DNA from: an uncultured Verrucomicrobiae bacterium
Lineage (GTDB): Bacteria > Verrucomicrobiota > Verrucomicrobiia > Limisphaerales > Palsa-1400
Direction: 5' to 3'
Length of the DNA: 64,000 bases
Assembly (NCBI GenBank): GCA_963707025.1
Contig: CAVPOM010000018.1
Coordinates: 224,001 to 288,000 of the forward strand
Under the pieces are notes generated by a model, which was not told the origin of the DNA, did not search any database, and was given only the letters and a program-made list of their open reading frames with translations. The stretch's first letter is position 1, and every line of letters starts with the position of its first letter. The position numbers and the translations under genes are program-made. This document shows positions 5,313 through 19,154 of this stretch, one piece after another.

Positions 5313-6295
5313 ACAGTCTGGCTCAAAATGATTTCCAGGAGGAGCAGGCTCAAACCGCCCAGCCCCACCGGCCGGTACAACTCGTCGAAATGCACGTATT
5401 TTTTCACTTCCACCTCGGTTTTTTCCATGCTGTCAATCTCCGCATAAATGCGCCGCATGGTGTCGGCGCTGTCGGCGCGGTAATACCTGCCGCCGGTCTT
5501 GTCGGCGATTTTTTGCAGGGTGTCCTCGTCCACGTCCGCCGCCATGAGCCGGGTCGTCATCTGGCCGGTGTAGGGATCCGGGACGGGCATGGGGGCCATG
5601 CCGCGCAGGCCGATGCCAATGGTATAGACCTTGACCTTCAAGGTTTGCGCCACATCCGCCGCGGTCAATGGTGGAACTTTGCCGGAGTTGTTCTGGCCAT
5701 CGGTCATGAGGATGATGATCTTGCTTTTGGATTGGATGTCGCGCAAGCGGTTCAAGGCCGCCATCAGGGCCGAGCCGATGGCCGTGTGGTTCTTATCTAT
5801 CACCCCCAGTTGCAGCCGGGCCAGGTTGGTCTGCAAAAAATCGTGGTCCAGGGTCAACGGCGAGGCGGTGAAGGCCTCGGTGGCGAAGGCGACCAGGCCG
5901 ATGCGGTCGTTGGGTCGGCCGTCTATGAATTTGGACAGGACTTTCCTGGCCATATCAATGCGGTTGACGCGCTGGCCTCCTTCCACAAAATCCAAGGAGG
6001 CCATGCTGCCGGAAAGATCTATGGCCACCACAATATCAATGCCGCTGGCTTTGATTTGAGTCTCGCCCTTGACCAGACGCGGCTGTGCCAGCGCCACGAC
6101 AAAGACGGCCAGGGCCAGCCAGCGCAGGCCGGCCAAAATGCGGCCCGCCCACGATTTGTTCAGGCCGGAAATGGGACGGACCAAATCCACCGAGGAATAA
6201 AGGAAGGAGGCGTTTCGCCCCCACTTGCCTTTGAGCCAGGCCAGCACCGGCAGGAGCATCAACCACAACAGAACGGCTGGGTGGGCGAAGGTCAT
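5294..6295 (-). CDS. BatA-like VWA domain membrane protein
   Basis: DIVVAIDLSGSM, RIGLVAFA, TAIGSAL, MTDGQNNSG, IADKTGGRYYRA. Confidence 0.92.
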   Translation of the reverse strand: MTFAHPAVLLWLMLLPVLAWLKGKWGRNASFLYSSVDLVRPISGLNKSWAGRILAGLRWLALAVFVVALAQPRLVKGETQIKASGIDIVVAIDLSGSMASLDFVEGGQRVNRIDMARKVLSKFIDGRPNDRIGLVAFATEAFTASPLTLDHDFLQTNLARLQLGVIDKNHTAIGSALMAALNRLRDIQSKSKIIILMTDGQNNSGKVPPLTAADVAQTLKVKVYTIGIGLRGMAPMPVPDPYTGQMTTRLMAADVDEDTLQKIADKTGGRYYRADSADTMRRIYAEIDSMEKTEVEVKKYVHFDELYRPVGLGGLSLLLLEIILSQTVWRKLP

Positions 6296-6987
6296 GGGAG
6301 TTGCTCCTTCGCTAAAGCTGCCTCCTTCGCCAAGCCTGCCGAGGACGGGGCGGAGGACAGGGCTGACGGGGGAAGAGGCGCGGGCGGACCGCCGGGCCGG
6401 AGGCTGGGCAGGGGCGGCGGGACGTGGGCCGGAACCGGGCGCGGCTCAGTTTCATTGACGAGGCGGAGGGCCGACTGGTAAAGACCGCGCAATTCCATTT
6501 CGGCCGGTTCGTATTTGGCAAATTTAATCAGGTCACAACTGGCCAGAAATTCCCCCAGGCTGCGCTTTTGGTCGCGGGTGAGGAGGAAGCTGCTTTGCAA
6601 CTCGCAGAGGAACTCATCGGTCGTGCGCTCCGGGGCGCGGAAGTTGAACCGCTCCTCCAAGTACTCGCGAATCGCGCCGGAAACCAGGATGGAAAACGGC
6701 TTGGGCTCACTGAGCATGGCCAGGGCCTGCTCCAGCTTGCGCCGGGCGCGGACGTGCGGCGGAATGGGCGGGGGCGCCAACACCGGCTGCTTGCGCCACC
6801 ATCGCCAGGCAAAATAAAGAGCGGTCAGCAGCGCCAGAATCACCACCGCCCAGAGAACCCAGGCCCAGGTGTTGGGAATATAAATCAGGGGCTTGGGCAA
6901 CTCCTGAAAAGCGGGCGCGGCCGCCGCGCCGTTGGTGGCGGGCGATGGGGCGGGAACGATCAGCGCCGATGAATTGGTGATGAGCAT
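6292..6987 (-). CDS. Bat-operon membrane protein (DUF4381-like) with a Pro-rich, repeat-derived tail
   Basis: Single TM helix, REYLEERF..APERTTDEF, DLIKFAKY; lies between DUF58 and batA. Confidence 0.75.
   Translation of the reverse strand: MLITNSSALIVPAPSPATNGAAAAPAFQELPKPLIYIPNTWAWVLWAVVILALLTALYFAWRWWRKQPVLAPPPIPPHVRARRKLEQALAMLSEPKPFSILVSGAIREYLEERFNFRAPERTTDEFLCELQSSFLLTRDQKRSLGEFLASCDLIKFAKYEPAEMELRGLYQSALRLVNETEPRPVPAHVPPPLPSLRPGGPPAPLPPSALSSAPSSAGLAKEAALAKEQLP
6302..6361. repeat. Nested pair of 30-nt hairpin mini-elements inside a CDS
   Basis: tgctccttcgctaaagct [gcctccttcgccaagcct gccgaggacggg] gcggaggacagg; same left/right half layout as 18430-18501. Confidence 0.7.
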
Positions 6988-6995
6988 GCCGGTCC

Positions 6996-7952
6996 TTATC
7001 CGTGGCGGCGCCGTTTTTCGCGCGTTTCAAAAAAATAGCCGAGGGCGGCGGCGTACGGCTGGTCAGTGCGCACTTCAATGGTGTCTATCTTGGCGGAACG
7101 CAGGGCGCGCAGCATGTCTTCCTGGTGGCGGGCGCGCCGTTCGGCAAAGGCGCGCCGCTTGCGCGCGTCGTGGGTGTTGATCTCGACCAACTCGCCCGTT
7201 TCGGCGTCGGTCAACAGCAGCCGGCCCAGGGGCGGCAATTCCATTTCGAAACGGTCCACCACCTGGATGGCGATGACGTCGTGGCGCCGGTTGGTCTGGC
7301 GCAAGGCGGGCAGGGAGCCGGATCCGAGCGTGGGCGAAAGCAAATAGCCTCCGGGCCGCTGGCGGGCGGCTTCTCCGGCCGGCGGGCGTGGCTCGAAGAG
7401 AAAATCCGAGATCACCACGACAATGGCGTGGCGGCGGGCCAGGCGGTTCAAAACATCGAGCGCTTCGCTAAAACGGGTCCCGCGCCGGGCGGGTTGAAAG
7501 AGCAGGATTTCGCGGATCACGCGCAAGACGTGGCGGCGTCCTTTTTTGGGCGGGATATATTTCTCGACCTCCTCGGTGAAAAGAATCAGGCCCACCTTGT
7601 CGTTGTTGCGGATGGCGGAGAAGGCCAGGACGGAGGCGATCTCGGCCGCCAGTTCGCGTTTGGTTTGCGCGCCCGAGCCGAAGATGCCCGAGCCGCTCAG
7701 GTCCACCAGGAGCATGAGGGTCAGCTCCCGTTCCTCCACGTATTTTTTAATGAAGGGATGGTTCATGCGCGCCGTGACGTTCCAATCAATGGAGCGGACT
7801 TCATCGCCGGGCTGGTATTCGCGCACCTCCTCAAAATTCATGCCCTGCCCCTTGAAGACGCTGTGGTACTGGCCGCCCAGGGTCTCGGTGACCAGGCGGG
7901 TGGTGCGCAGCTCGATCTGGCGGATTTTTTTAAGGATGTCGCGCGGGATCAT
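6996..7952 (-). CDS. DUF58 domain protein (MoxR-associated)
   Basis: MIPRDILKKIRQIELRT..GQYHSVFKGQGMNFEEVREYQPGDEVRSIDWNVTAR, plus DLSGS and VISDF. Confidence 0.95.
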   Translation of the reverse strand: MIPRDILKKIRQIELRTTRLVTETLGGQYHSVFKGQGMNFEEVREYQPGDEVRSIDWNVTARMNHPFIKKYVEERELTLMLLVDLSGSGIFGSGAQTKRELAAEIASVLAFSAIRNNDKVGLILFTEEVEKYIPPKKGRRHVLRVIREILLFQPARRGTRFSEALDVLNRLARRHAIVVVISDFLFEPRPPAGEAARQRPGGYLLSPTLGSGSLPALRQTNRRHDVIAIQVVDRFEMELPPLGRLLLTDAETGELVEINTHDARKRRAFAERRARHQEDMLRALRSAKIDTIEVRTDQPYAAALGYFFETREKRRRHG

Positions 7953-8001
7953 GGGGAATTGAGGATTGCGGATTGCGGATTCCGCGGGCGAATAACTCTG
8001 C

Positions 8002-8035
8002 TTGCGCGGGCGAATCCGCGCGGTAAATTAGGGCC
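8002..8035 (+). promoter_or_regulatory. Putative sigma70 promoter for a leaderless antitoxin transcript (cassette 1)
   Basis: TTGCGC-16 nt-TAAATT-6 nt-ATG; identical hexamers and spacing recur at 8794-8827. Confidence 0.65.
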
Positions 8036-8398
8036 ATGAGTGCGACAGAAATTCTTGCAGCAGCGAAGGCGCTTCCGCTCGAAGAGCGAATCGAGATTGC
8101 CCAAGGCTTGTGGGAAGACATTACCAGCAACGGATACGATCCCGATTTGACGCCGGAACAAACAGCGGAACTCGAGCGCCGTCTCGCTGACTTCGAGAAA
8201 AACCCCGGAGCCGGAATTCTCCTGGAGCAAGTCAAAGCCGAGTTGCGGCAACGCTTCCATTTCGATGACCGTTTGTCTCCAGAGCAAATCGCCGAACTTG
8301 ACCGCCGCGCAGAAGACGCATTGAAAAATCCCGGACGCGGAAAACTCGTTGACCAAGTATTTGCTGAAATTGAGGAACGCCTTCGCGCCAAGAAATGA
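8036..8398 (+). CDS. Addiction-module antitoxin with a duplicated C-terminal repeat
   Basis: ALPLEERIEIAQGLWEDI..LTPEQTAELERRL; the C-terminal unit occurs twice; ATGA overlap with the toxin. Confidence 0.85.
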   Translation: MSATEILAAAKALPLEERIEIAQGLWEDITSNGYDPDLTPEQTAELERRLADFEKNPGAGILLEQVKAELRQRFHFDDRLSPEQIAELDRRAEDALKNPGRGKLVDQVFAEIEERLRAKK

Positions 8399-8703
8399 CT
8401 TTGACGGTCATAGTCGAGGCTGACGCTGAACGGGACTGGGATGAGGCCGTGATGTGGAATGATGAGCGCGAACCAGGAATCAGTCATCGGCTCAATGTTG
8501 CGATTCGTGCAGTTCTTCAAACGCTTGCCCGACAGCCAGAACGATTTTCCGGCGCCACCCGGTTGACGCATAAAGCCAAAGTACCGCCGCCGTGGCCTTA
8601 CTCTGTTTATTTCACCATCAACGTGGAACATCGCGAAGTAAAGGTGCTGGCCATCTGGCACGGCGCGCGCAATCCCGCTGAACTGCGCCGGCGGCTGAAA
8701 TGA
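8395..8703 (+). CDS. RelE/ParE-family toxin
   Basis: AERDWDEAVMWNDEREPG..PERF..PWPYSVYF..VKVLAIWHGARNP. Confidence 0.85.
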   Translation: MTLTVIVEADAERDWDEAVMWNDEREPGISHRLNVAIRAVLQTLARQPERFSGATRLTHKAKVPPPWPYSVYFTINVEHREVKVLAIWHGARNPAELRRRLK

Positions 8704-8718
8704 AAAGCCCGCAGGCAG

Positions 8719-8780
8719 TTCGGTCGCGATGCGGTTCGTGCGAATCTCGATCTGGCGGATTTTTTTGAGGATTTCGCGGG
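8719..8780 (-). repeat. Diverged copy 2 of the DUF58 gene 5' end
   Basis: Encodes TREILKKIRQIEIRTNRIATE versus native PRDILKKIRQIELRTTRLVTE; shares AAAAAAATCCGCCAGATCGAG exactly. Confidence 0.92.
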
Positions 8781-8793
8781 TGGAAAACCGTGC

Positions 8794-8827
8794 TTGCGCG
8801 TCCAAGGGGGCATGGTAAATTAATGCC
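8794..8827 (+). promoter_or_regulatory. Putative leaderless promoter (cassette 2)
   Basis: TTGCGC-16 nt-TAAATT-6 nt-ATG. Confidence 0.65.
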
Positions 8828-9049
8828 ATGAGTTCGGAAACAATATTCAAAGAAGCCCGCGCACTTCCATTCGTGGAACAAATTGAGCTGTGCCGCAACC
8901 TTTGGAATGGAATCGTGGGTTCGCACGAACTGACGCCCGGCGAAGCGGAACTAATTGACCGCCGTCTGCAAGACCACCTGGAGAATCCCAACGACGTGGT
9001 TTCGTGGGAAGAAGTCAAAGCCAAGCTCGACGCGAAATACCGAAAATGA
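8828..9049 (+). CDS. Addiction-module antitoxin
   Basis: ALPFVEQIELCRNLWNGI..LTPGEAELIDRRL..NPNDVVSWEEVKAKL; paralog of 8036-8398. Confidence 0.88.
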   Translation: MSSETIFKEARALPFVEQIELCRNLWNGIVGSHELTPGEAELIDRRLQDHLENPNDVVSWEEVKAKLDAKYRK

Positions 9050-9345
9050 AACGCGGATTCGTCCTTCGCCGCGTCGCGGAACTGGAGTATGACGATTCCA
9101 TCGCTTGGTATGAAGGCGAACGGGAAGGCTTGGGGCAGGAATTTCGAGCCACCATCGAGAAATACTTTCACCGCATCGCCGAAACCCCCGAGCGGTTTCC
9201 GAAAGTCAGAGGCGAGGTCCGGCGAGCAGTCGTTCTCGGCCGCTTTCCGTATGTAATTCACTTTCTCGTCGAAAAGGATGGCATCGTGATTATGTCCGTA
9301 TTTCATACGAGCCGCGAACCGGAACAACTGAAATACCGGCGATAA
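9046..9345 (+). CDS. RelE/ParE-family toxin
   Basis: ATG at 9046 overlaps the antitoxin stop; AELEYDDSIAWYEGEREGLGQEF..PERFP..RFPYVIHF..IMSVFHTSREP. Confidence 0.9.
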   Translation: MKRGFVLRRVAELEYDDSIAWYEGEREGLGQEFRATIEKYFHRIAETPERFPKVRGEVRRAVVLGRFPYVIHFLVEKDGIVIMSVFHTSREPEQLKYRR

Positions 9346-9351
9346 GATTCT

Positions 9352-9414
9352 CGCGGTGCGGTTCGTGCGAATCTCGGTCTGCCGGATTTTTCTGGGAATC
9401 TCGCGGGGAATCAT
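9352..9414 (-). repeat. Diverged copy 3 of the DUF58 gene 5' end, including its ATG
   Basis: Encodes MIPREIPRKIRQTEIRTNRTA; its ATG overlaps the HNH gene stop (ATGA). Confidence 0.9.
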
Positions 9415-9806
9415 TTTCCTTTGCTCAACCGTATTTCGATGAATGCTGTCAATTCTTCTGGCGAAACCAATTTTGCTTCGATGCAGCGAATCAAAGTTCT
9501 GCGCTGTTTAACCATCCAATTGCTGTGTTTCAAAGCATCTGCAACTTCGCTCGCCGTCAACCCCAAACCATCGTGTTCAGCTTGATGGTGTTTTTCGCAA
9601 AGCGTAATCAGATTCTCGTCTAATTCATTCCACGGTTCACTGGTTGTGTAGTTGCGATGGTGAGCATTCAGGTCGCCAGCGTGGTCGCCTTCGGATTGGC
9701 AACGCCAGCCGTCACGTTCCATCATGATTTTGCGCTTTGCTCGCCAGCGCGGATCGTCAAAGAATTTCTGCGGAACGCGTGGCCGAGGTTTGTATTTAGT
9801 TGCCAT
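9411..9806 (-). CDS. HNH endonuclease-like protein
   Basis: DPRWRAKRKIMMERDGWRCQ..LNAHHRNY..NLITLCEKHHQAEH; visibly more AT-rich than the flanks. Confidence 0.85.
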   Translation of the reverse strand: MATKYKPRPRVPQKFFDDPRWRAKRKIMMERDGWRCQSEGDHAGDLNAHHRNYTTSEPWNELDENLITLCEKHHQAEHDGLGLTASEVADALKHSNWMVKQRRTLIRCIEAKLVSPEELTAFIEIRLSKGK

Positions 9807-9815
9807 ATTCCACGC

Positions 9816-10823
9816 TCACGGCACGGGCAGTTCGTTGAAGATTTTGGTGATGATGGTTTCGCTGGTTTTTTCCTCGGCCTCGGCTTCGTAGGTCACGGTG
9901 ACGCGGTGGCGCAGGACATCCATGCCGATGCTCTTGACATCCTGGGGGGTGACGTAGCCGCGCCCCCGCAAAAAGGCGAAGGCCTTGGCGGCCAGGGTAA
10001 GGGCGATGGTGGCGCGGGGCGAGGCCCCAAGCTGGATCAGGCCCTGGAGTCCCTGGATTTTATAGGCGGCCGGATCGCGGGTGCAGCAAACCATGTCCAC
10101 AATGTAATCCTTGACCTTGTCATCAATATAAATGTCGTTGATGACCTGGCGGGCCTCCAGGATTTGCCGGGCGCTGACCACCGGGCTGGCGGCGGGGATG
10201 GCGCCGGTGCGGGCCATTAAATCCAGGATCTGGCGCTCCTCCTCGCGCGAGGGATAGACAATTTTCAGCTTCAACATGAAGCGGTCCACCTGGGCCTCCG
10301 GCAGCGGATAGGTGCCTTCCTGTTCGATGGGATTTTGCGTGGCCAGCACCAGGAACGGTTCTTCCAGCTTGAAGGACTGGTCTCCAATGGTGACCTGTTT
10401 TTCCTGCATCGCTTCCAGGAGCGCGCTTTGCACCTTGGCCGGGGCGCGGTTGATTTCGTCGGCCAGGACCAGATTGGCGAAAATCGGCCCGCGCCGGGTG
10501 GTGAAGGCGCCGGTCTGCGGATTGTAAATCTGCGTGCCGATCAAGTCGGCCGGGAGCAGGTCGGGGGTGAATTGCAGGCGGGAAAACTTGACATTCAGGC
10601 ACGCCGACAAGACCTTGACGGACAAGGTTTTAGCCAGACCCGGCACGCCTTCCAGCAGGACGTGACCGTTGGCCAGCAAACCAATGGCCAACCGTTCCAC
10701 CAGGTAATTCTGGCCGACGACGACCTTGGCAATTTCACTAAAGAGGGGCCGGACAAAGGCGCTGGCCCGTTGCACCTCATCGTTGATGGCACTGATTCCG
10801 GTATTCATAATTACAAACAGCAA
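9816..10823 (-). CDS. moxR: MoxR-family AAA+ ATPase
   Basis: HVLLEGVPGLAKT, QFTPDLLPAD, LADEINRAPAKVQSALLEAM, ATQNPIEQEGTYPLPEAQVDRF. Start may be the internal ATG (MNTG). Confidence 0.96.
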   Translation of the reverse strand: MLFVIMNTGISAINDEVQRASAFVRPLFSEIAKVVVGQNYLVERLAIGLLANGHVLLEGVPGLAKTLSVKVLSACLNVKFSRLQFTPDLLPADLIGTQIYNPQTGAFTTRRGPIFANLVLADEINRAPAKVQSALLEAMQEKQVTIGDQSFKLEEPFLVLATQNPIEQEGTYPLPEAQVDRFMLKLKIVYPSREEERQILDLMARTGAIPAASPVVSARQILEARQVINDIYIDDKVKDYIVDMVCCTRDPAAYKIQGLQGLIQLGASPRATIALTLAAKAFAFLRGRGYVTPQDVKSIGMDVLRHRVTVTYEAEAEEKTSETIITKIFNELPVP

Positions 10824-10921
10824 ATAATAATGCCTAAAAGACAGCCGGATTTCAAACTTTGTTCAGAAAAAATCCATTGGGAAAAGCCCCGGCAACACGC
10901 CCAAAGGACCTGCGGCGGAGA

Positions 10922-12427
10922 TTATCCGGCAGAGGCGGCCAGTTCCTCCTCAAAATCCACAATCTCTTTTATTTGCACCAGGAACCAGCGGTCAATTTTG
11001 GTGAGTTGGAAGATTTCCTCGACGGTGAAGCCGGCGCGCAAGGCGTGACGGATGAAGAAAATGCGCTCGGCGTTGGGCGAACTGAGTTTCTGGCTGATGA
11101 TTTCCCGCGGCAAAATATCGCGGTCCTGATAGATGGTGGCGCCGAGGCGCCAGGGCCTGCCGTCGCCGCCCAAACCGGCGCGGCCGATTTCCAGCGAGCG
11201 GAGGGCCTTTTGCAGCGATTCCTTGAAGGTGCGCCCGATGGCCATGGCTTCGCCGACCGATTTCATCTGGGTGTGCAGGGTGGGATCGGCCTGCGGAAAT
11301 TTCTCGAAGGCAAAGCGCGGCACCTTGGTCACCACATAATCAATGGTCGGCTCAAAACTGGCCGGGGTCAGGCGGGTGATGTCGTTGCGGATTTCGTCCA
11401 GCAAATAACCGACCGCCAGCTTGGCGGCGATCTTGGCGATGGGAAAACCGGTGGCCTTGGAGGCCAGCGCCGAGGAGCGCGAGACCCGCGGGTTCATTTC
11501 AATGATGACCATGCGCCCGTTGTCCGGGTTGACGCCAAATTGGATGTTGGAGCCGCCCGTCTCCACCCCCACCGCGCGAATCACGGCGAAACTGGCGTCG
11601 CGCATGAGTTGATATTCCTTGTCGGTCAAGGTCTGAATGGGGGCGACGGTGATGGAGTCGCCGGTATGCACACCCATGGGATCGAAGTTTTCAATGGAGC
11701 ATATAATGACGCAGTTGTCGGCCTTGTCGCGCATGACTTCCATTTCAAATTCCTTCCAGCCGAGCAAGGATTCTTCGATGAGAATTTCCGAGACGGGGGA
11801 CAGCTCCAGCCCGCGCCGGGCCATGATGTCAAATTCCTCGCGATTGTAGGCAATGCCGCCGCCGGTGCCGCCCAGGGTATAGGCCGGGCGAATGATGAGC
11901 GGGAAAGGCCCGACGCGCTCGGCCACGGCGCGCGATTCCTCCAAATTATGGGCCGTGCCGCTGATGGGGACATCCAGCCCGATGGAGAGCATGAGGTCCT
12001 TGAAAATCTGCCGGTCTTCGCCCCGCTCGATGGCGGCGGCGTTGGCGCCGATCATTTCCACGCCGTATTTTTCCAGGGTGCCGCTCCGGGCCAGGGCCAT
12101 GGCCGTGTTGAGGGCGGTTTGTCCGCCCAGGGTTGGCAGCAGGGCCAGTTTGCCCGTAGCGCCCGTCCGCCGCATTTCCTCCGCTTCGCGCGCGATGATT
12201 TTCTCCACCGCCTCCGGGGTGATGGGTTCGAGGTAGGTGCGGTCGGCGAATTCCGGGTCGGTCATGATGGTGGCGGGATTGGAATTGACCAGGACAATGC
12301 GATAGCCCTCCTCGCGCAAAGCCTTGCAGGCCTGCGTTCCCGAGTAATCGAATTCGCAGGCCTGGCCGATGATGATCGGCCCGGCGCCGATAATCAGCAC
12401 CGAGTGAATGTCTGGGCGCCTGGGCAT
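10922..12427 (-). CDS. carB: Carbamoyl-phosphate synthase large subunit, N-terminal half only (501 aa)
   Basis: [76 protein letters not shown]; stops shortly after [10 protein letters not shown]. Confidence 0.92.
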
Positions 12428-12507
12428 AAAGCGGGCGAAACTTTAAGGCATTTGCCCGCGGTTGCCAGCGTTTTTCTGCAAAGCTGCCACCGGCCATGCC
12501 CGCTGCC

Positions 12508-13440
12508 TCACCCGGCCAGCCCCCGCACCGTGGCTTCCAAACTGGCGGCGTCGGCGATGTTGAAACTCTGAGCCCGCGGGTCAATTCGTTTCAAGAAACC
12601 GCTCAAGGTCGTGCCCGGTCCCAGTTCGATGAAGCGCGTGAACCCCTCCTCCAGCAAATAGCGCATGGAATCCTCCCAGCGCACTTCCGAGGTCACTTGC
12701 TCGACCAGGCGGGCGGCGATGGCGTCGGGGCTGGTATGCGGCCGCGCCGTGACATTGGAAATGACCGCCGCCGCCGGGAAATTTATGGAGACAGCCGCGA
12801 GCATGGCCGCCACCTTGGGCCGCGCGCCCGCCATGAGGCGGGAGTGATAGGCCCCCGCCACCGGGAGGGGGACCGCCCGTTTGGCGCCTTTGCTTTTGGC
12901 CAGTTGGCAGGCCCGCGCGATTTTTTCCGTCTCGCCCGAAATGACGATTTGCCCCGGGCAATTCAAATTGGCCACCTCAACGTCCGCCTCGGCGCAAACG
13001 GCGCGGGTGGCGTCCAGATCCAGCCCCAGCACCGCGGCCATGCCGCCGCGGGTCAGATCGCACGCTTCCTGCATGAAACGGCCCCGTTGCCGCGCGAGCT
13101 TGAGGCCGTCGCCAAACTCAAAAACTCCCGCCGCCGTCAGGGCGGTCATTTCCCCCAGCGACAAGCCCGCCGCCGCCTGAAAGGAGAATCCCGGCACGCT
13201 TTCCTTTAACAATTGCAGCGCCAGCCAGCTCACCAGAAAAATGGCGGGCTGGGCGTTTTCCGTTTTTGTCAATTCCTCTTCCGGCCCGTGGGAGCAGAGG
13301 GCGGGGAGATCAAAGCCGAGGAGGGCGCGGCCTTGCTCCAGCCAGGGCCGGGTGGAGGGGAACCCTTCGGCCAAATCGCGGCCCATGCCGGGGTATTGGG
13401 CGCCCTGGCCGGCGAACAACAGTGCGGTTTTAGGCATCAC
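12508..13440 (-). CDS. fabD: Malonyl-CoA:ACP transacylase
   Basis: FAGQGAQYPGMG, AQPAIF, GLSLGE, ANLNCPGQIVISG, LPVAGAYHS, ELGPG. Confidence 0.96.
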   Translation of the reverse strand: MMPKTALLFAGQGAQYPGMGRDLAEGFPSTRPWLEQGRALLGFDLPALCSHGPEEELTKTENAQPAIFLVSWLALQLLKESVPGFSFQAAAGLSLGEMTALTAAGVFEFGDGLKLARQRGRFMQEACDLTRGGMAAVLGLDLDATRAVCAEADVEVANLNCPGQIVISGETEKIARACQLAKSKGAKRAVPLPVAGAYHSRLMAGARPKVAAMLAAVSINFPAAAVISNVTARPHTSPDAIAARLVEQVTSEVRWEDSMRYLLEEGFTRFIELGPGTTLSGFLKRIDPRAQSFNIADAASLEATVRGLAG

Positions 13441-14195
13441 GTCCCCTCACTAAACCACGAACCGCCCGCCGGGGAAAACAGATTTTTGGCCGGCGGCGGC
13501 GCGCCCGGTTGCAGCCGGGCCAGAAATTCTGAAATCGCGCGGACCGAAGCTTCTGGGTGAACCTGGAGAATGAGATGCGGCGACGCAATCCTTTCGAGGT
13601 GAGTCTCTGGAAACCGCCGTTGGACGATTTTAAAATCGCGCGGCTTGACCAAACGGTCTTGTCCCGCCTGCAAATAGAGCAACGGGAAATTCAACGCCGC
13701 CGGCACGAAATCCTCATCGAATTCCAGCAGAACAGAAAACCGGTGCGCCAACACGCGGGGGGAAACCCCGCCAAGCGCATGATAAAACAAAGCAACAACT
13801 TCCTCGGCCGCATCTCCCAATAAAAACCGGCGAACCAGCCAGCGGGGCAGCCGCGTCCTGGTCAGAGCGGTTCCGCAAAATCTTAAGACCGCGATCAAAA
13901 TTCGAGGCGGGGGACATTGCGCGAAGGAGGCGCACAAGACTACCGCTTTGGGAGGCATGACATGGCGCGAAGCTGCCTTCAGCGCGATGGGGCCGGAAAA
14001 AGATTCGGCGACCAAAACGTAAGGTTCACTTTGCGGAAGATGGGCGAGCACAAGCCCGGCCAATTCATCGGCGGAACAGCTCCGGTCAGCCGGGTAAGCC
14101 ACCACCCCCGGCTCAATCTCCGGCGGCAGCACACGAAGCAACGGTGCAAACAAAATCCCTGTTCCATCAAATCCCGGCAGAAAAATCCATTTCAT
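13437..14195 (-). CDS. Alpha/beta hydrolase
   Basis: MKWIFLPGFDGTG, VAESFSG nucleophile elbow, DRLV, SPHLILQ. Confidence 0.85.
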   Translation of the reverse strand: MKWIFLPGFDGTGILFAPLLRVLPPEIEPGVVAYPADRSCSADELAGLVLAHLPQSEPYVLVAESFSGPIALKAASRHVMPPKAVVLCASFAQCPPPRILIAVLRFCGTALTRTRLPRWLVRRFLLGDAAEEVVALFYHALGGVSPRVLAHRFSVLLEFDEDFVPAALNFPLLYLQAGQDRLVKPRDFKIVQRRFPETHLERIASPHLILQVHPEASVRAISEFLARLQPGAPPPAKNLFSPAGGSWFSEGT

Positions 14196-14230
14196 CTCGT
14201 GGAAGACCGCGATTGACAGGCTGATCTTCA

Positions 14231-14260
14231 ATCCGTAATGCGCAATCCGCAATCCGCAAT
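14231..14260. repeat. Heptamer tandem repeat (CGCAATC)n
   Basis: atccgtaatgcgcaatccgcaatccgcaat; the same unit occurs reverse-complemented at 7965-7985. Confidence 0.8.
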
Positions 14261-14266
14261 GTCACA

Positions 14267-15673
14267 TCACGCTGCTCCCTTGCAGCCAAACAATTTCCGC
14301 TCGCGGATGATTTTGGCGACTTGGGGCGGCACGGCGGCTTCCCAAGCCGGGTCGCCCGCGCGAATTTTGGCGAGGATTTCCCGCGAAAAAATGGGGAGCG
14401 ATTTTTCGTCGTAGTCGCGCAGGCCTTCGATGAACCGGTTCTCCATGAGGTAGGCGTGGAGATGGCGCAAATTGGGGGCCACGCGCAAATTGCCCGCGGT
14501 GATGAGGGCGCCCGTTTTGGCCTCGAGCAACGGATAAACATAGAGCTTCAAATCGTTGCGGAACAGGCGCCCAAAGGATTCCAACAGGCCGCCCTCGAGG
14601 TCGGCGTAGTACTTTTCGTCAAAAACTTCCTTCAAAGTCGGCACCCCCATGGCCACGCCGATCATCTTTTTGGTGTAGCGGAAGAAGTAGGCGGCCAGGC
14701 GGTGGTACTCCGCAAAATCGGAAATGAGAACCGTTTTGCCCAGGGCGCCCAGAATATCCACGCGATCCAGAAAATCGCGCGGATCAATTTTGTCCCCGTC
14801 CGTCAGGTTTTTCAGGGTCATTTCCATCAGCGTGAGCACGTCTTCGCCCTGCACCATTGGTTCCTGCACAAAGAGCGCCTGGGCGCAGCGCAACATGTCC
14901 AGGGTGACATTGGTGACGGGGCGGAAACTGCCGCGCTCGACCAGGATGCACTTTTTGTAAAAGGCGTCGGCGGGTTGGACGACCTGGCCGTCGGCGGTGA
15001 ACAAGACGGCGTTGGTCAGGCCGCTCTGCACCAGTTGCAGGGCCATGAGGCGGTTGTCCAAATGGGCGAAGGCCGGCCCGGTGAGCTGGATCATGTCCAC
15101 CTCGACCCTGGCGGCGCCCACATTGTCCACCAGCGAGACGATCATGGTGTTGGGATCGGCGTGCAGGTACATGGCGCCGTGAACAAGGTTGACCCCAACA
15201 ATGCCGAGGGCCTCCTGTTCGGCCAGATTTTCTTTGTCCCACAAGCGGACGTGGGCGATGATTTGCGAAGGTTCCTCTCCCGGCTCCTTTTGAAAGCGGA
15301 TGCCCAGCCAGCCGTGGGCGTCGTCATGGCGCGAATAACTGCGCGCCGTGACCGTGTCGGCGAAGACGAAAAAGCGGGTGTTGGCGCCGCGTTTTTGCGC
15401 CAGCCGCTCCACCAGCAGGCCGTATTCACGCTGCAGCATGGTCTCCAGCCGCTGGCGGCTGACATAACGCTCGGCCTGGCCGTAGATGGCGTCGCTGATG
15501 GTCATGTCGTAGGCGGAAATGGTTTTGGCAATGGTCCCGGCCGCGCCGCCGACGCGGAAGAACCATCGCGCCACCTCCTGGCCGGCGCCGATCTCGGCGA
15601 AGGTGCCGTACTTGGCCGGGTCGAGGTTGACCTGGAGGGCCTTTTGGTGCGTGCTTATTATTTCTCGTTCCAT
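14267..15673 (-). CDS. Conserved hypothetical protein with a C-terminal nucleotidyltransferase (NadD-like) region
   Basis: N-terminal YGTFAEIGAGQEVARWFF; GSFRPVT and a NadD-like tail SREILAKIRAGD..VPPQVAKIIRERKLF. Confidence 0.7.
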   Translation of the reverse strand: MEREIISTHQKALQVNLDPAKYGTFAEIGAGQEVARWFFRVGGAAGTIAKTISAYDMTISDAIYGQAERYVSRQRLETMLQREYGLLVERLAQKRGANTRFFVFADTVTARSYSRHDDAHGWLGIRFQKEPGEEPSQIIAHVRLWDKENLAEQEALGIVGVNLVHGAMYLHADPNTMIVSLVDNVGAARVEVDMIQLTGPAFAHLDNRLMALQLVQSGLTNAVLFTADGQVVQPADAFYKKCILVERGSFRPVTNVTLDMLRCAQALFVQEPMVQGEDVLTLMEMTLKNLTDGDKIDPRDFLDRVDILGALGKTVLISDFAEYHRLAAYFFRYTKKMIGVAMGVPTLKEVFDEKYYADLEGGLLESFGRLFRNDLKLYVYPLLEAKTGALITAGNLRVAPNLRHLHAYLMENRFIEGLRDYDEKSLPIFSREILAKIRAGDPAWEAAVPPQVAKIIRERKLFGCKGAA

Positions 15674-15818
15674 GTCTGCACGAAATCAGGGTTTATCATC
15701 ACTGCTCAATGCACTGCTGACCATTGTTTAATCACGGCTTGCCTTGGTGGAAAGTTTAATGTGGCGCGAACTCACGGCCGGCGCGGCAAAAATCAGGACG
15801 GGGTTGGATTGGCAAAGA

Positions 15819-15858
15819 ATGGGACGGATGGGACGGATGGGACGGATGGGACGCATGG
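15819..15858. repeat. Nonamer tandem repeat (ATGGGACGG)x4
   Basis: Directly visible in the intergenic region. Confidence 0.9.
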
Positions 15859-15876
15859 CGGGAAGTGTTTTTAGCC

Positions 15877-17031
15877 TCACCGCCGGAAGGGCGGTGGCGG
15901 GATTTTGAGGACCAATTTGCGCGCTTCTTCGGCGGTGGTGACATCCTTGTCCAAGGGCAGCAGCAGCCATTTTTCCGGGAAGATGAAGCTGGCCCCGGGG
16001 GCCAGGGTGGCTTCGGGGCTGAGCGGATCCAGCTCCGTCACCCGGCGGTCGAAATAGACTTCCACCGAGTTGCCGCCGCCGCCGTAGTCCCCCCCCGGCG
16101 AAAATAAATAGTACTTGACAAAGAGGAGCCGCCCCCGCGCGTAGGCGATCCATTGGCCGTCGCTGTCCGCGCCCAGGCGGGTGGCGTCCCCGCCCGTTTC
16201 CGCCACCAGCACCCCGCCCAGCAGGCTGACGGCGGAGGAGCCGGGGTGGTCGCCATCATAGTATTTTTGCCCGCCGGCTTCCCGGATGCGGGCCCAGCCG
16301 GCTTTGAACCGGCTTTTTTTATTGAGCGGGAAAAGGACAAAACCGCCGCCCTTGCAAAACGTCCGGTCGGCCAGGCCATACTTGACAGGATTGTCGGAGA
16401 TGTTGCGCAGGCATTGCACCAAGCCCAGTTCGCCGGTGTCGCCCGCCAGCACAAAATCCTTGTCCAGCGCCACGCCCAGGGTCGCGTCCGGGCGGCTGAA
16501 AACCCGGGCGGAGAAATTGGCGTCGGCCTGCCAGCGTTGCGGCCCTTCGGACAGTTGCCAGTGGTCGGGCAGGACGCGGGCGCCCGCGGTGGCATCACAT
16601 TGGTAGCCGCCGAGAAAAAGGTCCTCGTTTTTCAAGCCCAGCGTGGCGCCCTGGCTGGCGGAATTCTCCAGCAAAATGTTCGCGCCGTTCCAACTGTAGT
16701 GCATGATCCGCCCGCCGACCGCCGGGACGACGACGGCCTGGACGGGTTTTTCGCTGGCGTTGAGAAACAGGCAGTTGGCCCATCCGGTGTAATCCCGCAA
16801 CTCCACGCCGGCCGGCAACTCATGCTGGGTCTGGCCGCGGCCGGCCACAAGGCCAAGCCACAGGGCCAGAACATAAAAAACACGTTGATTAGGCTTGATT
16901 AGGCTTGATTGATGTTGATTGGAAAAGCCCTTTCTTGCGCGTAAGTAGTTCATGGATAGTAACTTCCATTGATTTGCCGCAAAAAGGCGCAAAAGGCGCA
17001 GAAACAGCCACTTTTTCGGAGCTGGGAACAC
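15877..17031 (-). CDS. Putative secreted protein, possibly galactose-mutarotase-like; start uncertain
   Basis: VVPAVGGRIMHYS..ENIL-like pattern, SVEVY, TELDPLSP..LAPGASF..EKW. The first ~50 codons look repeat-derived. Confidence 0.6.
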   Translation of the reverse strand: MFPAPKKWLFLRLLRLFAANQWKLLSMNYLRARKGFSNQHQSSLIKPNQRVFYVLALWLGLVAGRGQTQHELPAGVELRDYTGWANCLFLNASEKPVQAVVVPAVGGRIMHYSWNGANILLENSASQGATLGLKNEDLFLGGYQCDATAGARVLPDHWQLSEGPQRWQADANFSARVFSRPDATLGVALDKDFVLAGDTGELGLVQCLRNISDNPVKYGLADRTFCKGGGFVLFPLNKKSRFKAGWARIREAGGQKYYDGDHPGSSAVSLLGGVLVAETGGDATRLGADSDGQWIAYARGRLLFVKYYLFSPGGDYGGGGNSVEVYFDRRVTELDPLSPEATLAPGASFIFPEKWLLLPLDKDVTTAEEARKLVLKIPPPPFRR

Positions 17032-17230
17032 TTAAAGACTGTCATCGCGGGGGCGAATCCGCGCGCAAAGGCAAACGAGTTCAGCGCAGCCAAGCGGAAC
17101 CAAAGGAATTGAGCACCGGATTTCACGGATTTCATGGATAAAAAGGACTCTTCAACGCCAAGACGCCAAGACGCCAAGACGCCAAGGCGGAAAAAGCTCT
17201 TTGTGCCTTCGCGTCTTGGCGGCTTTGCGT
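16885..17230. repeat. Mosaic of short tandem arrays
   Basis: (TTGATTAGGC)x2+ at 16885, AAAAGGCGC x2 near 16982, CGGATTTCA x2 at 17117, (ACGCCAAG)x4 at 17155-17186 with an inverted partner at 17207-17230. Confidence 0.85.
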
Positions 17231-17637
17231 TAAAAATCCCACTGCCATTCGCGGTAAAATCTTTGCGGAAAGGAGTGATGGCAGCGGAGGGAAGATCATC
17301 CTTGTTGAAATTCCCGCTCCGGGATGCCGCCGCGCGCTCCAAGACCGCGCCTGCGCCGGGAGCCTCCTCCCGGATGCGGCCTTGGACTGTGCCTCCGTGT
17401 CTCACGCTGAGTATTCAACCATAGGTTCTAATTTTTGTCAAGCTCCTGTTGGAAAGTGGATTTTGTCATGGGAACCTCGTTCGAACCAGACTGACAAGGC
17501 AAAATCATTGAGGGCAAAATCATGCGGAAATCCGAATGAACTTGGGGTAACCCTTTCGCTGACACTTTCACCTTTCAGATATTAATCTCTCCCCTCCCCG
17601 GCTTGCATTAGAGCGCCCCGTCGCGTACAATGGCAAC

Positions 17638-17859
17638 GTGACATCAGCGGAAATCATTGAGGAGATCAAACGCCTGCCTCGAGCGGAACAGAACCGAGTC
17701 ATTGATTTTGTCCGAAAAGCCGGGGAAGTCCGCCGTCTCCCCCCCGACGAGTTGGGAGAACTGGCGAGGAAAATGGCCGAGGCGAAAGATTCCGGCGAAG
17801 CCGACCGTTTGCAGACAGAGATTGTGCGTGGATTCTACGGCGGGCGAGCCGATGCCTAG
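17638..17859 (+). CDS. Small antitoxin-like protein
   Basis: MTSAEIIEEIKRLP resembles the N-termini of the antitoxins at 8036 and 8828; preceded by TTGCAT-17 nt-TACAAT-6 nt-GTG. Confidence 0.7.
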   Translation: MTSAEIIEEIKRLPRAEQNRVIDFVRKAGEVRRLPPDELGELARKMAEAKDSGEADRLQTEIVRGFYGGRADA

Positions 17860-17868
17860 AATTCGTCG

Positions 17869-18264
17869 CTAGAAACCGCCGAAGAGCGGTGATTTATACT
17901 TGGCCTGTATAATCTTCGGCGGCTTGTTGCGGGCGAGCCATATAAACACTTGATTTGTGGTCACGGCTAGTGTGCCCTCGTCTCCGAACTGGCCGCCGCC
18001 GATTTCAGGGTAGCACTTGTACTGAGTGCCAGCAATTGTAACGACGTTGGTGGATAGCCAGAACCGGTCGGCTGAACTGGAGACGTTCGTGACGTATCCA
18101 TACTTCGCGAAATCCTCGGCGGCGATCTTTAGCATGTATCTGTGCTCCTTCATGCAGGCGTCTCGTTCCGACTGTCCTGAAAGGACAAGCAGTGCGCCTA
18201 AGCAGAAGAACAGGATCAGGACAATTGCTATGATCCGGTTTCTCATGGGCATCGGACTTACCAT
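17869..18264 (-). CDS. Hypothetical membrane-anchored protein
   Basis: N-terminal TM segment RIIAIVLILFFCLGALLVL; lower GC than the flanks. Confidence 0.6.
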   Translation of the reverse strand: MVSPMPMRNRIIAIVLILFFCLGALLVLSGQSERDACMKEHRYMLKIAAEDFAKYGYVTNVSSSADRFWLSTNVVTIAGTQYKCYPEIGGGQFGDEGTLAVTTNQVFIWLARNKPPKIIQAKYKSPLFGGF

Positions 18265-18429
18265 GCCTGCGGTGATTTGAAAACGGAAAACCGCTTACGA
18301 AAGGCGAAGCCCTGCCCTGGTGGAGATGGCGGTGGATTCCAAGATGCGAAGGGCAAACCGGGGGCGAACTGGAATCTAGCGACCTCCCGACCAGGCAATC
18401 ATCGGGGCGGAGCGTTCGCGTGTTGGCAT

Positions 18430-18501
18430 CCCACCTTCGCGGGGCCTTCTGCCTTCGCAGGGCCTACGGCGGACAAGACGGCGGACAAGACGGTGGAAAG
18501 G
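18430..18501. repeat. Nested 30-nt hairpin mini-elements
   Basis: cccaccttcgcggggcct|tctgccttcgcagggcct|acggcggacaag|acggcggacaag|acggtggaaagg. Confidence 0.75.
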
Positions 18502-18625
18502 CGACACGGGAACGAGCCGCGGGGATAAGCCGGACTTTCTCGGGAATACGGAAACGGCGGGAACACCTTGATTTTGAGCAGCAAGAGCGGTTGCATTCAG
18601 GCTCGTTTGGTGTTTATTTACGGTC

Positions 18626-18835
18626 ATGACCGAAAGCGTCGTCGTCCAGGACCCTGAAATTCTCAGTGGCACGCCGGTATTTGCGGGTACTCGCGTGCCG
18701 GTGCGCAACCTGCTTGATTACCTGGAGGGCGGTTACACGCTCGACGAGTTTCTGGATGACTTTCCCGGAGTAACCAAAGCCCAGGTGGTTGCGTTTCTGG
18801 AGCAGGCCAGCGCCAAACTCCTTGTGACGGCTTGA
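18626..18835 (+). CDS. DUF433 antitoxin
   Basis: DPEILSGTPVFAGTRVPVRNLLDYLEGG..EFLDDFP. Confidence 0.92.
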   Translation: MTESVVVQDPEILSGTPVFAGTRVPVRNLLDYLEGGYTLDEFLDDFPGVTKAQVVAFLEQASAKLLVTA

Positions 18836-18836
18836 A

Positions 18837-19154
18837 ATGAGAGTCGTGCTCGACGAGTGCCTGCCAAGGCGATTGACCCGCGAACTGCCTGGACACGAGG
18901 CCCGCACGGTCCAGCAAATGGGATGGAGCGGCATTTCCAATGGCAAGCTGCTCTCTTTGATTCGTGGTCAATTTGACGCCTTCATCACTGTGGACAGCAA
19001 TCTGGCGTACCAGCAAAACCTCTCCGCCCTGCCGGTGGCCGTGGTTGTGTTGCGCGCGCCGTCCAACAAAATTGAAGATCTTCGCCCGCTCCTGCCCCTT
19101 TTGTTGGCGACGCTGACTGTTCTCAAGCCGTGCGAACTGCGCCTCGTGGGGTGA
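18837..19154 (+). CDS. DUF5615 PIN-like toxin
   Basis: MRVVLDECLPRRL..HEARTVQQMGWSG..FDAFITVDSNL. Confidence 0.9.
   Translation: MRVVLDECLPRRLTRELPGHEARTVQQMGWSGISNGKLLSLIRGQFDAFITVDSNLAYQQNLSALPVAVVVLRAPSNKIEDLRPLLPLLLATLTVLKPCELRLVG

Follow-up and report, generated by a model that had tools for sequence, protein, structure and literature searches.

The DNA analysed here (the window) is a stretch of 64,000 nucleotides from the genome of an uncultured Verrucomicrobiae bacterium (contig CAVPOM010000018.1, positions 224,001 to 288,000), and at window positions 6302-6361 and 18430-18501 it carries a 30-nt hairpin that is inserted into itself. We found that this unit is a mobile hairpin with fixed ends, which leaves no target duplication, strongly prefers one site within its own sequence and, with its length of 30 nt, keeps the reading frame. 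The element is real and widespread, and it represents a further form of the tagged-hairpin mobile repeats, with a good candidate enzyme. Taken as a whole, the results are probably best explained by a nonautonomous 30-nt hairpin that is moved in trans by a small GIY-YIG protein. An earlier note, made from the sequence alone, had proposed a very small nonautonomous element, and the empty sites and orthologues described below bear out this gene-less unit of 30 nt.

The 6.96-Mb source genome (88% complete) was scanned with a position weight matrix built from 34 seed copies, with the reversed genome as a control. This gave 72 arrays in the genome versus none in the reversed sequence; the array at 6302 is too decayed for the thresholds of the matrix and is not among the 72. 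Written as numbers of 18-nt left halves (L) and 12-nt right halves (R), the shapes are 45 L1R1, 13 L2R2, 2 L3R3, 3 L2R3, 3 L3R2, 2 L3R4, 2 L1R2, 1 L4R3, and 1 L2R6. More than one half on a side is present in 27 of the 72 arrays, and the numbers of left and right halves per array are correlated (Spearman rho 0.93). When the innermost 30-mer was deleted, the flanks re-formed an element in 25 arrays, always on the same strand and at offset 18, so the fixed target that had been postulated within the element's own sequence was found at position 18 in 25 of 25 nesting cases. The nested shells are not local duplicates, because adjacent L halves are no more similar to each other (13.9 of 18 positions) than L halves of different arrays (13.3 to 14.0). 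One host site was seen in L1R1, L2R2, about L3R3, and L4R3 versions, and the nested arrays represent about ten distinct host contexts, as judged by eye. Nested units account for 30 of 102, though the 7-mer of the self-target matches 3836 sites in the genome; the self-site is favoured about tenfold beyond sequence alone, a figure that is inflated by shared ancestry. Runs of near-identical extra R halves in some arrays look like later slippage. No replication-strand bias could be read from the copies of the genome (25 versus 12, with 35 ambiguous and a patchy skew). A 33-nt variant with a longer inner stem, which also keeps the frame, is present in the source genome (G000) at C6:227916 and forms outer shells at C6:228895 and C9:182529.

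Insertion is precise. A site was scored as empty when 10 nt of each flank were joined exactly elsewhere in the genome at zero offset, and such sites exist for 12 of the 72 arrays. Clean presence or absence of the unit was likewise seen at two sites in the host repeat of the 18430 locus and in the gene at 6302, where 13 of 13 orthologues lack the insert. Five of the 12 arrays lie in heptamer tandem repeats, where duplication is possible, and the other seven in three nontandem hosts; no target duplication was present at these seven sites. The empty sites also show that the single 30-mer, not an inverted doublet, is the mobile unit. Miniature inverted-repeat transposable elements are defined by a target-site duplication and perfect terminal inverted repeats, and the present element differs on both points, with no duplication at the seven sites and a 4-nt unpaired tail at one end. 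Elsewhere in the source genome (C5:202644-205700), three sites that we take to be attC-like each carry the element at the same position, and no empty copy of this exact site was found; the labels attC-like, GTAG-type, and CGTC-type that we use for host repeats are in part provisional.

In the unit, a 3x3 internal loop separates a 6-bp stem from a 3-bp stem that is closed by a 2-nt loop, and one end carries a 4-nt tail. On the complement of the strand used in the earlier note, it reads as a 4-nt CYTG tag, the 6-bp stem, a GWA/GRA internal loop, the 3-bp stem, and the 2-nt loop, and the self-insertion point is GW^A in the internal loop. In 30 distinct copies, 94.8% of the cells are paired and there are 27 double changes, which none of 500 shuffles reached; as the copies were selected by pattern and most columns are fixed by that pattern, only the free columns are informative. 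Positions 12 and 15 are CG or TA in 104 of 108 cases, and in 54 of 59 phage copies the base at position 1 corresponds to that at position 26: of 30 GGA-ended copies, 27 have T, and of 29 GGG-ended copies, 27 have C. The covariation between stem partners that had been claimed therefore holds within the unit; between nested shells it is weak, with concentric versus crossed pairing at 5 to 2. On the + strand, A.C mismatches outnumber G.T mismatches (15 versus 5), which favours folding of the CYTG strand, and this is probably the folding strand. Its GWA/GRA internal loop may contain sheared G.A pairs.

An exact-pattern search yielded at least 121 stretches, which according to their record labels belong to Patescibacteria, Acidobacteriota, Planctomycetota, Verrucomicrobiota, Bacteroidota, Omnitrophota, Alpha- and Gammaproteobacteria, and others, and 59 stretches from phages. 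The element is near-identical across these many phyla and phages. Among the matches listed, 14 of 177 distinct loci contain several units, and a search of phages with a composite pattern gave no match. CT^RC was not supported as the general target, since only 2 of 167 balanced loci in other genomes have it, and CT^[AT]CG is present in 14 of the 167. The flanks show a loose C-W^Y-M-G bias, and most copies lie within other repeats or genes. Landing sites include genes, tandem repeats, and the loops of other hairpin repeats, with CGTC-type repeats among the targets. When empty sites were rebuilt, 15 of 109 fell in loops of stems of at least 7 pairs, compared to 1.3% among 905 random controls and 2.8% among 436 nearby ones. 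We also considered an internal guide, in which a base of the element sets a base of the target, and found no support for it (p > 0.3 for positions 4, 23, and 29 against the 5' flank; four other nominal hits in 20 tests are uncorrected).

The element can add blocks of 10 amino acids in frame to proteins, as had been predicted. This was seen for the gene at 6302, where 60 nt correspond to 20 residues, and for AlaRS, LeuRS, and SMC domains. The element lies inside the best Pfam stretch in 12 of 43 open frames, which were chosen by eye from 168 candidates over 139 loci, and these 12 include AlaRS, LeuRS, an SMC ATPase, a radical-SAM enzyme, and a phage portal protein. A ribosomal protein S16 gene (L005:764-1345) has two in-frame copies in its C-terminal tail. 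In the source genome, a crude gene finder placed 18 of 73 arrays in open reading frames (ORFs), most of them doubtful, and this count was not used.

As the earlier note had stated, the mobilizing enzyme is not in the window, where neither a Y1 nor a GIY-YIG match was found. A linked HUH/Y1 transposase, which it had put forward, was not supported: of the 10 Y1_Tnp loci of the source genome, 9 were checked and none has the element nearby, and in relatives it is near 1 of 30. A clade of small GIY-YIG proteins is linked instead. These are single-domain proteins of about 80 amino acids with a C-terminal LKSGSG motif, and their genes are located at tRNA or tmRNA 3' ends. The closest solved relatives of the clade protein are of the UPF0213/Slx1 type (PDB 1zg2, E 6e-6; 7wme, E 0.006). 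The leaders of the clade genes are made of the same hairpin, with a long form (same arms, CARG tail) that starts from the tRNA/tmRNA CCA and a short form that runs in the reverse orientation. We surveyed 84 nonredundant loci, of 101 with 200 nt upstream. The hairpin is present upstream of 38 of 49 clade genes (defined by the KSG-S/P/A-G motif and by 46% or more identity with the query), of 6 of 19 close genes without this motif, and of 2 of 16 distant genes; downstream it is found for 4 of 48 clade genes, and the background is 12 of 3000 random windows. Leaders follow directly behind tRNA/tmRNA genes in 28 of 49 cases. The exact 30-nt unit at the tRNA CCA opens several leaders (L326, L331, L338, and L341), and a dispersed-type 30-mer is nested at the usual site within three (L252, L256, and L336). 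No Rfam family matched window positions 18200-18700 or the leaders of five loci.

The distribution of the clade agrees with that of the element. Among 150 genomes of the phylum, whose kin are not independent, the element is present in 31 of 47 with the clade versus 14 of 103 without it (odds ratio 12). The association is also seen within families (Cochran-Mantel-Haenszel p = 1e-6, 11 families) and among Y1-bearing genomes (odds ratio 9.7). We know of no role of minimal GIY-YIG nucleases of the UPF0213/Slx1 type in mobile DNA. A protein search of plasmids gave no match.

Other GIY-YIG genes of the source genome (on C9, C11, and C16) were considered as partners and rejected, as no element is nearby. 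Two small GIY-YIG genes that are nearly identical (C9:13251-13466 and C11:124736-124951) belong to another subfamily, and behind them lie a short palindrome and a 3' tRNA fragment. At L337, L339, L334, L345, L257, and L266, the GIY-YIG cassettes form tandem units or have partial direct copies of the leader behind them, a pattern expected from a circular intermediate. Exactly the long leader element is absent from a tmRNA-linked clade gene at L260, a loss for which a 7-nt direct repeat could also account. In the source genome at C2:107200-108100, next to decayed tRNA-like sequences, a second hairpin is attached to element-like hairpins.

We consider it likely that the mover is this GIY-YIG nuclease of about 80 amino acids, with its LKSGSG motif and its genes behind leaders of the same hairpin, and that it would act in trans as RAYT does for REPs. 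How it would do so is less certain, and the following account has a little under an even chance of being right. The enzyme would bind the hairpin in single-stranded DNA and cut both ends, after which the piece would be joined into the nick of a second bound hairpin. The strand that is bound would be the CYTG strand, and the cuts would fall 4 nt 5' of the stem and at the 3' foot of the stem. The excised piece may be a dumbbell circle, whose junction would be the stem closed by a CYTG loop (stem-CYTG-stem); such a junction sequence stands before 25 of 49 clade genes, and tandem insertion explains it equally well. Either the nuclease or a ligase of the host could perform the joining. A single binding site for donor and target would account for the self-nesting. 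A partial precedent is SsnA, a related single-domain GIY-YIG enzyme, which is described as cutting single-stranded DNA a few nucleotides upstream of a tagged hairpin and not the reverse strand (PMC11893778). More tentatively, the protein might represent a new class of single-strand transposase, which cuts out the 30-nt hairpin, perhaps in the form of a dumbbell circle, and joins it with base precision into unpaired loops, with a preference for its own recognition hairpin.

Several observations weigh against a GIY-YIG mover or against parts of this scheme. To our knowledge, no GIY-YIG enzyme carries out strand transfer or joining. The accessible text on SsnA reports cleavage only (PMC11893778). 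Clustering of the neighbours of 121 genome and 59 phage loci revealed no shared enzyme gene near the elements, so that the mover acts in trans. The clade is missing in 14 of 45 element-bearing genomes of the phylum, and 16 of 47 clade genomes have no element match. In G004 (19 element copies, 83% complete) and G015 (6 copies), no small clade match was found. The clade gene of the source genome (C4:279295-279525), which lies about 2 kb away from a tmRNA-like 3' end, carries Cys in place of the first conserved Tyr and its leader is cut short; to judge by these changes, the enzyme copy looks inactive. The R end is found within 450 nt downstream of just 3 of 82 genes, which means that element ends do not simply enclose the gene cassette. 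One of the three criteria used for the leaders (the junction pattern) was written after the loci had been seen; with the two structure criteria by themselves, the counts are 22 and 27 of 49. Y1_Tnp co-occurs with the element as well (40 of 45 element genomes, odds ratio 5.5), and general mobile-DNA load confounds the profile. Copies share ancestry via host repeats, so that the counts overstate independent events. As many as 94 of the 109 rebuilt targets lie outside strong hairpins, and the variable stem base is paired concentrically in 5 and crosswise in 2 of the 12 informative arrays among the 25 nested ones, with 5 ties (p = 0.45). When folded as single sequences, the decayed copies of the window do no better than shuffles.

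Alternatively, a HUH tyrosine transposase (RAYT or TnpA) moves the element in trans, and the GIY-YIG leader is a related hairpin and favoured landing site. We regard this as unlikely, although HUH chemistry is described as a precise exchange of single strands at hairpins with a 4-nt tag (PMC3333891), the source genome has 10 Y1_Tnp matches, Y1 is present in the 40 of 45 element-bearing genomes mentioned above, and the target and the element end both often finish in G-purine on the CYTG strand. However, besides the scarcity of elements near Y1 loci (0 of 9 in the source genome, 1 of 30 in relatives), 5 of the 45 element genomes have no Y1 match, one of them with 9 copies, and among clade-bearing genomes the Y1 association is not significant (p = 0.21). 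Somewhat less likely again is that the nuclease merely nicks hairpins and that host repair or recombination copies the 30-mer in, possibly from an RNA or single-stranded DNA template, without a true transposase step. The leaders are probably transcribed, because 28 of 49 are directly behind tRNA/tmRNA genes, G.T and G.A-type pairing would suit either RNA or DNA, the genes at L334, L337, L339, and L345 are flanked by partial leader copies in direct orientation as from recombination, and target choice is loose. This does not sit well with the base-exact ends in unrelated targets that share no homology, with the lack of a reverse transcriptase among the largest neighbour clusters of the 121 genome and 59 phage loci, or with the finding, in the text available, that SsnA does not bind RNA (PMC11893778). 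Finally, that the LnRn arrays arose by local slippage of halves, with their balance kept by hairpin selection and without nesting, is very improbable and already largely refuted: unbalanced arrays with near-identical R runs (L2R6 and L2R3) and the weak concentric covariation (5 versus 2) fit it, but neighbouring L halves resemble each other no more than unrelated halves do, one host site has the series of versions from L1R1 and L2R2 to about L3R3 and L4R3, some outer shells are of the 33-nt type, and 30-mers lie at the same site within GIY-YIG leaders, so that slippage accounts only for extra R units.

In the window itself, the earlier coordinates and parsing are correct, with L-L-R-R at 6302-6361 and L-L-R-R-R at 18430-18501. 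The first array lies on the + strand and consists of a decayed outer left half (6302..6319), an inner intact element seated at the L|R site of the outer one (6320..6349), and an outer right half with a CARG tail (6350..6361). It is in frame in a coding sequence, as had been noted; the host ORF (6292-6987, - strand, 231 amino acids) has no Pfam match, lies just upstream of a VWA/BatA gene, and encodes ALSSAPSSAGLAKEAALAKEQLP* there. The array adds 20 residues to the variable C-terminal tail, at a decayed heptamer-repeat site. Its 60 nt are missing in all 13 orthologues retrieved (24 other genomes had a match), and without the array the tail reads PSALP*, compared to QSAMP* and QSGLP* in genomes of the same genus. 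The second array, also on the + strand, interrupts a dispersed host repeat. The left part of this repeat (18331..18429; 84-88% identity to 4 other full-length matches) ends at its insertion site 1, followed by the left half of the outer element (18430..18447), the inner intact element (18448..18477), and two further right halves (18478..18501), the first of which is identical to the inner R and the last of which abuts site 2, where the right part of the repeat starts (18502..18525). Insertion site 1 is empty in 8 genome copies of the repeat, and a paralogue has a clean L2R2 there. The locus at 18430 is a composite, that is, a nested pair plus a deletion, and not a clean three-shell insert. As its flanks are two different sites of the host repeat (site 1 on the left and site 2 on the right) and the 36 host bases between them are missing, the third R may derive from a second element or from slippage. 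A contig of sequencing run X1, which may be the source sample, spans 18394-18598 without differences; no joint that skips either array was present among the sequencing-run matches listed, where cover is low, and no RNA run was among the runs listed as containing the sequence. Because the window copies are decayed and the enzyme copy of the genome appears inactive, these loci are probably relics.

The dispersed host repeat with two element sites (window 18331-18525) is also present elsewhere in the source genome (C2:99801, C3:179643, C4:466463, C6:499731, and C12:227284) and in genomes of the same genus. Two other features of the window are an inverted pair of short tandem-like repeats at 17130-17300, with RRQDAKTPRR and SRQDAKAQR on opposite strands, and a toxin-antitoxin-like pair (DUF433 and DUF5615) at 18626-19154.

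To judge from sequence comparisons, the 30-nt element works like REP/RAYT and NTS/Ssn and appears to be a member of neither, because it has no terminal GTAG and no RAYT link, its arrays give 0 of 72 matches to SRM, and the NTS-flanked proteins are on a separate branch. In the REP/BIME/REPIN systems with RAYT (TnpA-REP), a tagged imperfect hairpin is likewise moved in trans by a small enzyme whose gene bears cognate hairpins (in our case a candidate mover), and an unpaired region of the stem is described as important (PMC3333891 and PMC3116915). The tag there is a terminal GTAG, whereas here the terminus is CYTG and GWAG (GTAG) is internal; the unit there is an inverted doublet, whereas here it is a single hairpin, and there is no RAYT linkage at the own and related Y1 loci. 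Ssn with NTS/SRM (Neisseria SsnA, cd10448; Chenal et al. 2025, PMC11893778) has in common with our system a short oriented hairpin, an unpaired 5' tag, and a small single-domain GIY-YIG gene. The authors suggest that Ssn/NTS units are mobile or domesticated elements, and in the text available this mobility is only hypothesized (PMC11893778). The published degenerate SRM pattern has 50 matches elsewhere in our genome, outside the 72 arrays. Four NTS-flanked proteins form the separate branch (length 1.7 in an 82-column tree) and align with the clade protein over the first 44 amino acids only, which by proxy suggests that the clade protein is not a cd10448 member. Both systems have a hairpin-flanked small GIY-YIG gene, but here the flanking is one-sided (38 of 49 upstream versus 4 of 48 downstream) and the genes lie at tRNA/tmRNA ends. 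Precise insertion, self-nesting, and empty sites, as seen for our element, are not reported for Ssn/NTS in the accessible text (PMC11893778).

CGTC-tagged repeats (Di Nocera et al. 2013, PMC3733652) are likewise tagged stem-loops of 20-40 nt, with a TGTC tag variant and some copies in frame in genes. Compared by text description, CGTC-1 to CGTC-4 have 8-9-bp stems that start with A/T pairs and a CCA-like tail, whereas our element has a 6+3 stem starting with TCC/CCC (PMC3733652). Rickettsia palindromic elements are also in-frame palindromic inserts in housekeeping genes, but they are about 150 bp long and, as first reported, limited to the genus, whereas the 30-nt element is near-identical across phyla and phages and nests in itself (PMC10969869). 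We found no description of this hairpin family in the literature, with the figures and supplements of PMC3733652 and PMC11893778, a possible place of such a consensus, outside the search. The available text of the Minerva preprint (10.64898/2026.09.22.753630) contains no mention of GIY.

The spread of REP-like hairpins for which no transposase is known is an open question, and CGTC repeats are described as lacking one (PMC3733652). The present family supplies exact ends, empty sites, a preferred target, and a candidate enzyme, so that it can be tested with a few oligonucleotides. If the small GIY-YIG protein is indeed a transposase, the two would be among the smallest pairs of mobile element and transposase, spread over bacterial phyla and phages, and would continually insert blocks of 10 residues into essential proteins. 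Should the nuclease join DNA, the GIY-YIG fold would gain a new chemistry, and the enzyme would be a very small tool for insertion into single-stranded DNA. The element also gives rise to 10-amino-acid loop insertions in conserved proteins and, in annotation, to peptides that are shared only spuriously.

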